From Shigella phage SF1-1: DNA of 64,000 nucleotides. Below the pieces are notes generated by a model, which had not been told where the DNA came from, did no database searches, and worked only from the letters and a program-made list of their open reading frames with translations. The position numbers and the translations under genes are program-made. Shown piece by piece: positions 17,862 to 19,098 of this stretch (positions are counted from its first letter, which is position 1; each line of letters starts with the position of its first letter). Where the stretch lies: sequence record PQ571307. The stretch is one strand, 5' to 3'.

Positions 17862-18130
17862 CAAGTTTTGAAAGTAACTTCGTTACCGCTTGGGAAGCTT
17901 GGGATGAAATGGGTGTTGGGGAGCTTTATTTTTACAATGTAACACTACGTCCAGAGTATGCTTACCTGGTACCAGAAGGAACAGTTCAAATTGGCATGTA
18001 TCTGTCTTCTCAAGACGGTGTTGTTCAATTTGAGTTTTATTCAAACACAACGGACAACGAATTTACATATCGTGCATTTCATGTCAACATGTCTTTAGGA
18101 GAGGAGAAATTTTATGACGACCAAGTTTAA
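17840..18130 (+). CDS. hypothetical protein
   Basis: ATG after GAGGAGGTTTT. Confidence 0.5.
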   Translation: MAEFGSVTSFESNFVTAWEAWDEMGVGELYFYNVTLRPEYAYLVPEGTVQIGMYLSSQDGVVQFEFYSNTTDNEFTYRAFHVNMSLGEEKFYDDQV

Positions 18131-18311
18131 AACAGTAGAAGAAGCCGTAAAAGCAGCTTATGAGGCTTTAGCGGAAGCAGAGCAGTTAGCAGATGAGACT
18201 GGTAAAGGTTTCCGTTTCTCCCCTGAATATGGGATGGGTGGTTATTATGATCCAGAAGATGAAAATGAGAATACTGGAACAAATTGGCATCCATCTTCTT
18301 TAAGTTGTTAA
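18114..18311 (+). CDS. hypothetical small protein, C-terminal W-x-SSS-x-C family member 1
   Basis: ATG after AGGAGAGGAGAAATTTT; C-terminus NWHPSSLSC. Confidence 0.45.
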   Translation: MTTKFKTVEEAVKAAYEALAEAEQLADETGKGFRFSPEYGMGGYYDPEDENENTGTNWHPSSLSC

Positions 18312-18322
18312 TAGGAGGTAAA

Positions 18323-18598
18323 GTGGGAATCGAAGATATCAAAGGTTATAAGGCGCATACTGACGATAAGATTGGCAAGGTTAACGCTATTAAAGATGCA
18401 GAAGAGCGTTTAGGTTTAATCTTCAAAGCTTTAGAGGAAGAGTATTGTGAAGCATATCATGGGTCTTTTGACGGCACAGAAAAAGAATCAGATCTTGCAT
18501 ACGAACGTATTGATCAAATCCGTTGTGCTATTAAACATTTAAAAGAAGCTAGTATGTGGGCTTGTCGTTCAGTTTTCCAACCAGAGGAGAAATACTAA
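18323..18598 (+). CDS. hypothetical protein
   Basis: GTG after ATAGGAGGTAAA; internal start of track ORF 18284. Confidence 0.45.
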   Translation: MGIEDIKGYKAHTDDKIGKVNAIKDAEERLGLIFKALEEEYCEAYHGSFDGTEKESDLAYERIDQIRCAIKHLKEASMWACRSVFQPEEKY

Positions 18599-18816
18599 TG
18601 AGTGATCGTAATGTTGAAGAATTAACTGAAAAAGCCCAAGCTATTATGGCTTTAGTGGACGAACTTACAAAAGAAGCTGAAGATGCTGGTTTTGGTCTTA
18701 GTTTAGAAAATGACGCAATCTGTTTTGAAGATTGGCAATCCTCTTCTTGTTATGGTGAAGGTGATGATGGTTTCGTCGTTAATTCTCAAGGCGTTTGGCA
18801 CAGTAGTAGCTGTTAA
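18598..18816 (+). CDS. hypothetical small acidic protein, C-terminal W-x-SSS-x-C family member 2
   Basis: ATG after GAGGAGAAATACTA; C-terminus GVWHSSSC. Confidence 0.45.
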   Translation: MSDRNVEELTEKAQAIMALVDELTKEAEDAGFGLSLENDAICFEDWQSSSCYGEGDDGFVVNSQGVWHSSSC

Positions 18817-18825
18817 GGAGAGATT

Positions 18826-19098
18826 GTGGAGTCTGAAGGCGAACTGCTGATAAAAAAGAAAGTTAAAGAGATGGAACAAGCACAAAGAAAGTTTCGTAAG
18901 GAAATTGAAGAACTTTGTGAACAGTTTCAGGAACAAGCTTGGATAGGTGACTACGGTAACGGAGAAACTTATTACCCTACAGGAACGCCAGCCGCAGATC
19001 ACTATATTGATTTCATTTGTGAAGATTATGGTGTAGAGTTAGATGAAAATGGTTTAACCACAAGAGGTGTTTGGATCTCTTCTTCCTCAATGTGTTAG
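18826..19098 (+). CDS. hypothetical small protein, C-terminal W-x-SSS-x-C family member 3
   Basis: GTG after AAGGAGAGATT; C-terminus GVWISSSSMC. Confidence 0.45.
   Translation: MESEGELLIKKKVKEMEQAQRKFRKEIEELCEQFQEQAWIGDYGNGETYYPTGTPAADHYIDFICEDYGVELDENGLTTRGVWISSSSMC

Follow-up and report, generated by a model that had tools for sequence, protein, structure and literature searches.

Tandem phage genes for small acidic proteins ending in a conserved Trp-Ser-Ser-Cys tail are linked to a DUF7277-DUF7275 gene, pointing to a possible tag-and-enzyme partnership

A stretch of 64,000 nucleotides from Shigella phage SF1-1 (sequence record PQ571307), which is a Phapecoctavirus (phAPEC8-like Escherichia coli myophage) and is referred to here in its full length as the window, carries on its plus strand three open reading frames (ORFs), W1 (18114-18311, 65 amino acids), W2 (18598-18816, 72 amino acids) and W3 (18826-19098, 90 amino acids, with a GTG start). 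They encode small proteins that end in ...GTNWHPSSLSC, ...QGVWHSSSC and ...RGVWISSSSMC, respectively, and in each the last codon before the stop is Cys, which in W1 is also the sole Cys of the protein. Immediately downstream of the end of W3 at 19098, a fourth gene on the same strand (19190-20131) encodes a 313-amino-acid protein made up of the Pfam domains DUF7277 (E 1e-12) and DUF7275 (E 1.1e-75). A preliminary description of this DNA had singled out the three ORFs for their endings, with Cys as the final residue, and had called the proteins small and acidic; a check of the sequence confirms the endings NWHPSSLSC, GVWHSSSC and GVWISSSSMC, and the isoelectric points (pI) of the 65- to 90-residue products are 4.05-4.40. 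Here we show that this terminal motif, hereafter the tail, marks a large family of phage proteins whose genes lie in near-obligate synteny with the DUF7277-DUF7275 gene, a linkage that points to an undescribed tag-and-enzyme partnership.

A Shine-Dalgarno sequence precedes each of W1, W2 and W3, and the ATG start of W2 overlaps the stop of the preceding gene (18323-18598) as TAATG. None of the three products contains a hydrophobic segment. When all stop-to-stop ORFs of at least 30 amino acids in the window (n=1073) were scanned for the pattern W.{1,2}SS.{0,2}C$, W1-3 were the only three matches, against a chance expectation of 0.005 matching ORFs per window (mean of 200 composition-preserving shuffles). 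In comparison with a relative that is 75-82% identical, the proportion of synonymous differences is near saturation (pS 0.62-0.85) while that of nonsynonymous differences is low (pN 0.10-0.16), and the ratio of the corresponding rates (dN/dS) is about 0.05 for W1 and about 0.12 for W2, which indicates that W1-3 are real genes under purifying selection. The tail of W2 (W-x-S-S-S-C) is two residues shorter, with no residues between the Ser-Ser stretch and the Cys, and W2 also holds a second, internal copy of the tail (DWQSSSC) directly followed by YGEG; both the short tail and the internal copy recur in its orthologues from Citrobacter phage Moon and phage IME08. A Ser stands at position -4 from the terminal Cys in W1, W2 and W3, the arrangement of aminovinyl-cysteine (AviCys) and lanthipeptide precursors, and other tails of the W2 subfamily, such as IWYPSSC, do not always have it.

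The preliminary description had taken the tail to be shared in place of a fold, and for W1-3 this part has to be given up. All three proteins match phrog_899 (PHROGs v4, function unknown) in hidden Markov model (HMM) searches (W1, E 1.2e-12; W2, which belongs to a divergent subfamily, E 1.4e-5; W3, E 5.1e-14), and they align over their whole length to profile positions ~148-221, up to the profile end. They have in common an N-terminal amphipathic helix, and a (D/E)YGxGxxYYP motif is present in W1 and W3, of which W2 keeps only the YGEG remnant. By these alignments W1, W2 and W3 are homologous paralogues and not unrelated proteins. The view that their bodies had diverged stands insofar as identity to W1 is only 33-37% in the three-way alignment, and is limited by the shared helix, YGxG motif and phrog_899 membership. 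An AlphaFold2 model of W3 built from a 14-sequence alignment is confident (predicted local distance difference test score, pLDDT, 93.9) and predicts an alpha/beta domain with a long helix (residues 4-34), three strands (38-40, 47-50 and 82-85) and two short helices (62-68 and 86-89). The third strand includes the tail Trp and leads into the short terminal helix. In BFVD the matches of the model were all uncharacterised phage members of this family (from Ro121lw, IME523, Yersinia TG1, Aeromonas CC2 and phage 31, Acidovorax ACP17 and RB69 ORF139c), and a fold search returned neither a beta-grasp nor any other PDB counterpart. The sequences of W1-3 gave no Pfam match at E<=1, no NCBIfam or PADLOC family match and no PDB match. 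Membership of the Acb2/Tad1 family (PF24729) was also considered and rejected, as none of the three matched its hairpin model.

When 1.8 billion representative proteins were searched exhaustively with an HMM, 302 clusters of small acidic phage proteins were collected at E<=1e-3. Judged by sequence, W1-3 thus belong to a large phage-restricted superfamily of acidic, cytoplasmic proteins of ~50-150 amino acids, whose hallmark is a strictly C-terminal G-W-x-[S/A/P]-S-S-x-x-C-COOH or, in its short form, W-x-x-S-S-C. The chain stops at Cys in 163/169 of the database proteins retrieved, and when W1-3 are added to these (172 sequences) the strict ending W-x-[S/A/P]-S-S-x-x-C is found in 162; the median pI of this set is 4.4 and the terminal Cys is the sole Cys in 99 of its members. 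Since the majority of members contain just one Cys, neither an intramolecular disulfide nor a zinc finger can explain the tail in general. In an alignment of 137 diverse members with a mean column identity of 18%, the only invariant columns are the W, S, S and C of the tail, beside which Y43, G44, G46 and Y49 are nearly invariant. The DNA of 107 distinct tails draws on every one of the six Ser codons, of the TCN as well as the AGY type, on either Cys codon and on each of the three stops, so the constraint acts on the amino acids and on termination right after the Cys, and not on a nucleic-acid element. Conservation in orthologues was the point on which the preliminary description had staked its case, and the tail is indeed kept there: close relatives retain W[HFY]PSSxxC and G[VIL]WISSSxMC, as do the T4-like phages PEi20 and Entb_45. 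In rare tails one residue follows the Cys, and it is always Trp (...GWISSSICW in locus L020, 6898-7332; ...GWAPSNVCW in locus L089, 7543-7983). The longer members (<=200 amino acids) have extra N-termini that are coiled-coil-like only; the idea that these might be fusion partners was dropped, as no recognised domains were found in them.

The tail also extends to proteins that the family HMM misses. Tail-bearing ORFs near the DUF7277-DUF7275 gene include a 52-amino-acid minimal form, a class of ~70 amino acids (phrog_4882, which includes IME08 gp121 and RB69 ORF136c), proteins of 139 and 144 amino acids in a related phage and a class of ~146 amino acids (phrog_23943); orphan proteins are also among the bearers of the tail. 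In profile comparisons with hhalign, the W2-like and phrog_23943 classes still match the core family with the last nine residues cut (probability 83-93%). For the 52-, 70- and 139-amino-acid classes the tail is the sole alignable stretch (77-87%), and without it the probability falls to 0.6-5.5%. These comparisons identify the tail as the element under the strongest constraint, irrespective of whether the bodies have diverged to the extreme or the tail has been transferred between proteins.

Tail-protein genes occur as tandem arrays of 1-5 diverged copies per locus. The window and Citrobacter phage Moon have three each; IME08, with one unannotated copy, and a metagenomic relative that is Phapecoctavirus-like have five each, and other loci have up to five. 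In T4-like phages the arrays lie within the hyperplastic region between e/nudE and the tRNA genes. Subfamilies matching W1, W2 and W3 recur across genera, and the paralogues are therefore old and individually maintained. Phage RB69 carries the whole module: its ORF134c is the DUF7277-DUF7275 protein (318 amino acids, with the motif KVCTSITSGW present), and its tail proteins include ORF137c (...GGWVASSHTC) and ORF136c (...QGWVSSSYSC). Also in RB69 (NC_004928, L111, 11735-12041), ORF139c (...GDYGSGRTYYPKGEIVSQWYEK up to its stop codon, containing ...GDYGSGRTYYP...) adjoins ORF138c (...EGAWVSSPALC, in which the second Ser of the tail is replaced by Pro), and the two look like the halves of one W3-type gene that has been annotated as two ORFs; the split may reflect a frameshift, either a mutation or a sequencing error. 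The unannotated gene of IME08 (NC_014260, L002, 4772-4990) encodes a 69-amino-acid tail protein (...EGFWFSSSMSC) between gp121 and gp120, and the annotated N-terminus of gp120, which begins at 4836 and overlaps this ORF in another frame, is probably too long. Even if the tail should prove to be structural, it is a simple and highly specific marker that exposes the missed gene in IME08 and the possibly split one in RB69.

All six of the diverse family members that were traced to public assemblies, among them Myxococcus phage Mx1 and contigs of up to 185 kb, some of them metagenomic, lie 0-11 genes upstream of a DUF7277/DUF7275 gene on the same strand, and that gene is found downstream in all 17 tail-anchored loci (L002-L018), which include these six. 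Starting instead from the DUF7277-DUF7275 gene, tail ORFs were detected by pattern or HMM in 76/80 viral contigs, and the remaining four have variant tails directly upstream (WVQSSC, WDSSTC, CYSSSTF and WAPSNVCW). Of 155 tail ORFs picked out by the pattern among 17,140 ORFs scanned, 149 are upstream of the gene on the same strand, and many stop 8-100 nucleotides before its start codon. The synteny of tail genes with this one enzyme-like gene is thus near-obligate. The latter is present in 734 phage records and in only six contigs of metagenome-assembled genomes (MAGs) among 185,579 bacterial species genomes, and the module is consequently essentially phage-restricted. No tail ORFs were found within 5 kb of distant DUF7275 homologues (28-37% identity) in Gordonia and Streptomyces phages, Vibrio phi-ST2 and DSS3_VP1, which indicates that the partnership typifies one large clade and not the whole DUF.

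The partner protein itself is far more conserved than the tail proteins, with 40-46% identity between the homologues of E. coli, Myxococcus and metagenomic phages and ~40 residues that are at least 93% conserved in 94 sequences. Near its N-terminus, G5 S6, D26 x D28 and E70 are invariant in nine diverse homologues, and G5, S6, D26 and D28 are at least 97% conserved in the 94. The pattern hG[GS]x9-13Dh[DE]h is the classic signature of nucleotidyltransferases of the Pol-beta type (credited to Holm and Sander and to Aravind and Koonin). The shortest N-termini of the partner (LIGSQAFDMGREPRDTDMI), with a 10-residue spacer, match this pattern together with the downstream acidic residue, and one GenBank record names a homologue 'putative nucleotidyltransferase'. 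In the helical C-terminal domain, invariant Lys, His, Asp, Glu and Arg residues are clustered in K112-x-S-H115-R, H183-D184-x-x-H187, E229-E230, E237-R238 and K262-V-C-T-S-I-T-S-G-W, which suggests a second catalytic or binding centre. Residues 262-271 (K-V-C-T-S-I-T-S-G-W), which form the most conserved motif of the protein, read like the tail G-W-x-S-S-S-x-x-C backwards, and this likeness could reflect antiparallel pairing. A pairing of Cys264 with the tail Cys was considered and set aside, since the two are not strictly co-dependent: Cys264 is missing from two tail-linked loci and present in the tail-less DSS3_VP1. The tail-less Gordonia, Streptomyces and Vibrio homologues lack it. DUF7275 genes are often found near tRNA or RNA-repair functions, including the tRNA arrays of T4-like phages and of Gordonia phage Bachita, an RNA ligase in Streptomyces phage Blueeyedbeauty and, in DSS3_VP1, RNA ligase 2 together with a metallophosphoesterase. 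In the window, a gene that bears the annotation 'histidyl tRNA synthetase' in the related phage Schickermooser lies about 4 kb upstream. Such neighbours could hint at an RNA-directed activity of the putative enzyme.

Because an exactly terminal motif is kept on otherwise diverging proteins that are encoded beside one conserved enzyme-like protein, we favour the reading that the tail is an element recognised or modified by the DUF7277-DUF7275 protein, to which we assign a probability of roughly 0.45. Exactly C-terminal motifs are typical of systems in which the end of the chain is recognised or worked on, such as ubiquitin, ThiS and MoaD with their E1-type enzymes, Pup with PafA, MccA with MccB, MftA with MftC and EpiA with EpiD, and GS...DxD enzymes are known that act on small proteins (GlnD on PII, MntA on HepT, and CitX/MdcG on small acidic acyl-carrier subunits, at a Ser). 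The tail, including its free alpha-carboxylate, would be what the enzyme recognises in the small proteins, most likely as a substrate for nucleotidyl transfer or related chemistry on the invariant Ser-Ser, the terminal Cys or both and, less likely, as a docking peptide only; the specificity would differ from paralogue to paralogue, set by the diverged bodies. The module would probably act in host takeover or counter-defence, since it lies in early, hyperplastic regions rich in anti-defence genes, with an Acb2 gene inside the array of the window. The most specific form of this proposal is a post-translational 'tag and writer' system, in which the enzyme covalently modifies the Ser-Ser...Cys-COOH tail (through nucleotidylation at Ser or Cys, or through activation and then a Ser-Cys crosslink) and so switches on or directs takeover or counter-defence effectors; taken as a whole, we regard it as rather unlikely. 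The preliminary description had proposed a functional tag serving modification, export or degradation. The tag has gained ground, as the tail is invariant, exactly terminal, linked to one enzyme-like gene and outlasts the bodies that carry it; recognition by a partner, like the biological role, is what we infer from these properties. Modification or partner recognition fits best among the three uses, export is unlikely, the proteins being soluble, acidic and free of hydrophobic segments and their genes having no secretion genes as neighbours, and degradation has no positive evidence.

Several observations weigh against this reading. From synteny alone, a substrate, a regulator and a member of a shared pathway look alike; as the distant DUF7275 homologues described above have no tail ORFs nearby, the enzyme can exist without tail proteins; and in the window a terminator and a promoter-like site lie between W3 and the partner gene, so co-transcription is not required. 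The nucleotidyltransferase assignment is made at the level of a short motif: the partner has no match to a characterised nucleotidyltransferase in Pfam, NCBIfam, PADLOC or the PDB, hhalign comparisons with E. coli Cca, GlnE, PcnB and GlnD were not significant (probability <=1.2%), and a single-sequence AlphaFold model (pLDDT 35) was discarded. Comparisons with E. coli Dgt and with an AadA sequence were not significant either, and a larger profile of 94 partner sequences did no better against the characterised enzymes. The best local matches of the nine-sequence profile to Cca, GlnE and PcnB, none of them significant, appear to fall near what we take to be the DxD motifs of those enzymes. Finally, the tail Trp and the residues after it are predicted in the W3 model to form sheet and then a helical turn, and not a floppy end, which would suit a structural role.

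Such a role is the core of one alternative, in which the tail is an intrinsic structural or ligand-binding element (a metal or small-molecule site formed with the YGxG loop and Tyr residues, or an oligomer interface) and the DUF7275 protein is a mere neighbour in the same pathway. In the model the W83-S85 strand is placed beside the YGxG...YY strand, with S86-M89 as the terminal helical turn, residues spaced as W(i), S(i+3), S(i+4), C(i+7) would all point to the same side of a helix, Y43, G44, G46 and Y49 have been kept nearly as strictly as the tail, and known phage sponges, one of which is apparently encoded by the Acb2 gene inside the array, are small oligomers. The tail nevertheless persists on bodies that lack both the YGxG loop and any detectable similarity, the W2 subfamily alters the Ser-to-Cys spacing, which is hard to reconcile with a fixed structural site, and the near-obligate position upstream of one enzyme gene is left unexplained. 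Nucleotide sponges are reported to have positively charged pockets (bioRxiv 10.1101/2025.07.12.664507), whereas W1-3 are strongly acidic. We therefore think of a purely structural tail as a possible but unlikely account. Less probable still is an arrangement like that of MNT/HEPN, AbiE or MenAT, in which the small proteins would be non-covalent regulators or antitoxin-like inhibitors of a potentially toxic DUF7277-DUF7275 nucleotidyltransferase, with the tail as a pseudo-substrate plug. The order of the genes, with a small acidic protein followed, often after 8-100 nucleotides, by a larger enzyme bearing a nucleotidyltransferase-like signature, is what such a module would show, but three to five diverged paralogues per enzyme would not be expected of it, no HEPN, AbiEi or MenA-like family was detected, the genes are in separate transcription units in the window, and the near absence from bacteria (the six MAG contigs among 185,579 species) would be odd for a toxin and its antitoxin.

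Two further explanations appear very improbable. The spacing S-x-x-C-COOH is that of epidermin, and the small proteins could be precursors of ribosomally synthesized and post-translationally modified peptides (RiPPs), in which a tail Ser is dehydrated and joined with the terminal Cys in a lanthionine or aminovinyl-cysteine ring, or in which the terminal residue becomes a small molecule, as in mycofactocin or the pearlins. The obligatory terminal Cys, the Ser at -4 in most members and the several precursor-like paralogues beside one conserved enzyme-like gene are all in keeping with this. Against it, homo-oligomeric flavin-containing Cys decarboxylase (HFCD), LanB/C/M, radical S-adenosylmethionine (SAM) and peptidase families were absent among the neighbours in a relative of the window and in the six diverse loci, the proteins are predicted to be well-folded domains and not leader and core peptides, and some W2-type tails (IWYPSSC) have no Ser at -4. 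A tag for export, packaging or degradation, recognised by machinery of the host or the phage and not by the DUF7275 protein, would account for a conserved and terminal motif, and the phage encodes an HslV-like peptidase ~5 kb upstream. We know of no bacterial C-terminal degron or secretion signal that resembles W-x-S-S-S-x-x-C; the proteins have no hydrophobic or secretion-type features, a single host reader is hard to envisage for a motif found in phages of hosts as different as Enterobacteria, Aeromonas, Pseudomonas and Myxococcus, and the linkage to DUF7275 would go unexplained, so that we see next to no likelihood in this explanation.

Recognition or modification of the tail by the DUF7277-DUF7275 protein would, if right, parallel known C-terminal tag-and-enzyme systems in its logic, and the components appear categorically new. 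As in ubiquitin/E1, ThiS-ThiF, MoaD-MoeB and Pup-PafA, an exactly terminal motif stands on diverged bodies next to a gene for what would be a dedicated chain-end enzyme; in W1-3, however, the tail is W-x-S-S-S-x-x-C and not Gly-Gly or GGQ, the W3 model is a helix with a three-stranded sheet and lacks the beta-grasp of the ubiquitin-like proteins and sulfur carriers, and the neighbour matches only DUF7277 and DUF7275 and not E1, ThiF or PafA. The precursors EpiA (with EpiD) and MftA (with MftC) likewise have an obligatory terminal residue, several precursor paralogues and a modifying enzyme alongside, and EpiA even has a terminal Cys with a Ser three residues before it, as in the tail, whereas W1-3 have no HFCD, lanthipeptide or radical-SAM enzymes nearby and are predicted to be folded, phage-encoded and intracellular. 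The pairs GlnD-PII, MntA-HepT and CitX/MdcG with their targets combine a GS...DxD enzyme and a small partner with invariant hydroxyl residues, as here, but the DUF7277-DUF7275 protein agrees with this class in the motif only, and W1-3 are unrelated to PII, HEPN or acyl carrier proteins. With Acb2/Tad1 they share small size and an early, anti-defence-rich region, and they differ in being strongly acidic and in matching neither the Acb2/Tad1 model nor any Pfam family. Ubiquitin-like proteins and sulfur carriers, Pup, AviCys RiPPs, Acb2/Tad1 and nucleotidyltransferase toxin-antitoxin modules were accordingly rejected as identifications, as W1-3 show isolated features of each and lack the defining ones. 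Full-text searches of the literature on phrog_899, DUF7275/DUF7277, the RB69 ORFs and C-terminal-cysteine phage proteins returned nothing relevant, and neither the tail motif nor its breadth or coupling to DUF7275 appears to have been described. If the partnership is real, hundreds of large virulent phages, including T4-like phages of Escherichia, Klebsiella, Enterobacter, Aeromonas and Acinetobacter, Phapecoctavirus, Pseudomonas phiPsa374-like phages, Myxococcus Mx1 and jumbo-phage contigs, would share a two-part system in which one enzyme-like protein is paired with fast-diverging small proteins united only by a chemically suggestive terminal motif. It would give a function to DUF7275, DUF7277 and at least three PHROG families labelled 'unknown', could reveal a new protein modification or recognition code, and would add a candidate module for host takeover or anti-defence to the hot spot that also holds Acb2. 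RB69, which carries the module, offers a tractable model.

In the window, W1-3 close a tightly packed plus-strand operon. It ends at an intrinsic-terminator-like hairpin on the plus strand (19107-19124; a 7-bp stem with five GC pairs, then a T run), at a site whose homologue is annotated as a terminator in phage Schickermooser, and the terminator before it, when the Schickermooser annotation is transferred by position, falls near 14,565-14,590 of the window. Between the hairpin and the partner gene, a sigma-70-like promoter match (19131-19159, plus strand; TTGACA, 17 nucleotides, TAAACT, with an upstream TG) is a match to the consensus only. The region 17000-20200 is 99% identical to phages ETEC-TG, WPEC1, Schickermooser and others, where the genes are annotated 'hypothetical protein'. 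The plus-strand gene between W1 and W2 (18323-18598) encodes an Acb2/Tad1-hairpin protein (PF24729, E 1.6e-16; also phrog_717) that is unrelated to W1-3. Acb2/Tad1 is a family of anti-CBASS and anti-Thoeris sponges. This gene is missing from the related contig L004, where W1 and W2 adjoin, which makes the tail array look like a hot spot at which counter-defence genes insert.

Further upstream, a 170-amino-acid protein (17349-17861, plus strand; phrog_8569) ends in ...EEVLWQSSDQ, which resembles a decayed tail. In a related phage the corresponding place is taken by the 139-amino-acid tail protein, to which it has no similarity. The L020 orthologue of the 170-amino-acid protein ends in ...DIDQGGW, and the protein was rejected as a decayed tail protein, the LWQSSDQ ending being probably a coincidence. 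The gene before it (16778-17359, plus strand), which shares the operon of the tail proteins, encodes 193 amino acids annotated as 'DprA-like DNA recombination-mediator' in related phages, and gave a weak PADLOC match to ShosA (DprA-like; E 0.02) and no NCBIfam match. A 102-amino-acid protein (16462-16770, plus strand; phrog_15301) also ends in Cys (...EPYTPFEITC), as does its orthologue in L020 (4613-4885; ...GTPFTVTC), and may represent another conserved small protein that ends in Cys, with a motif other than the tail.

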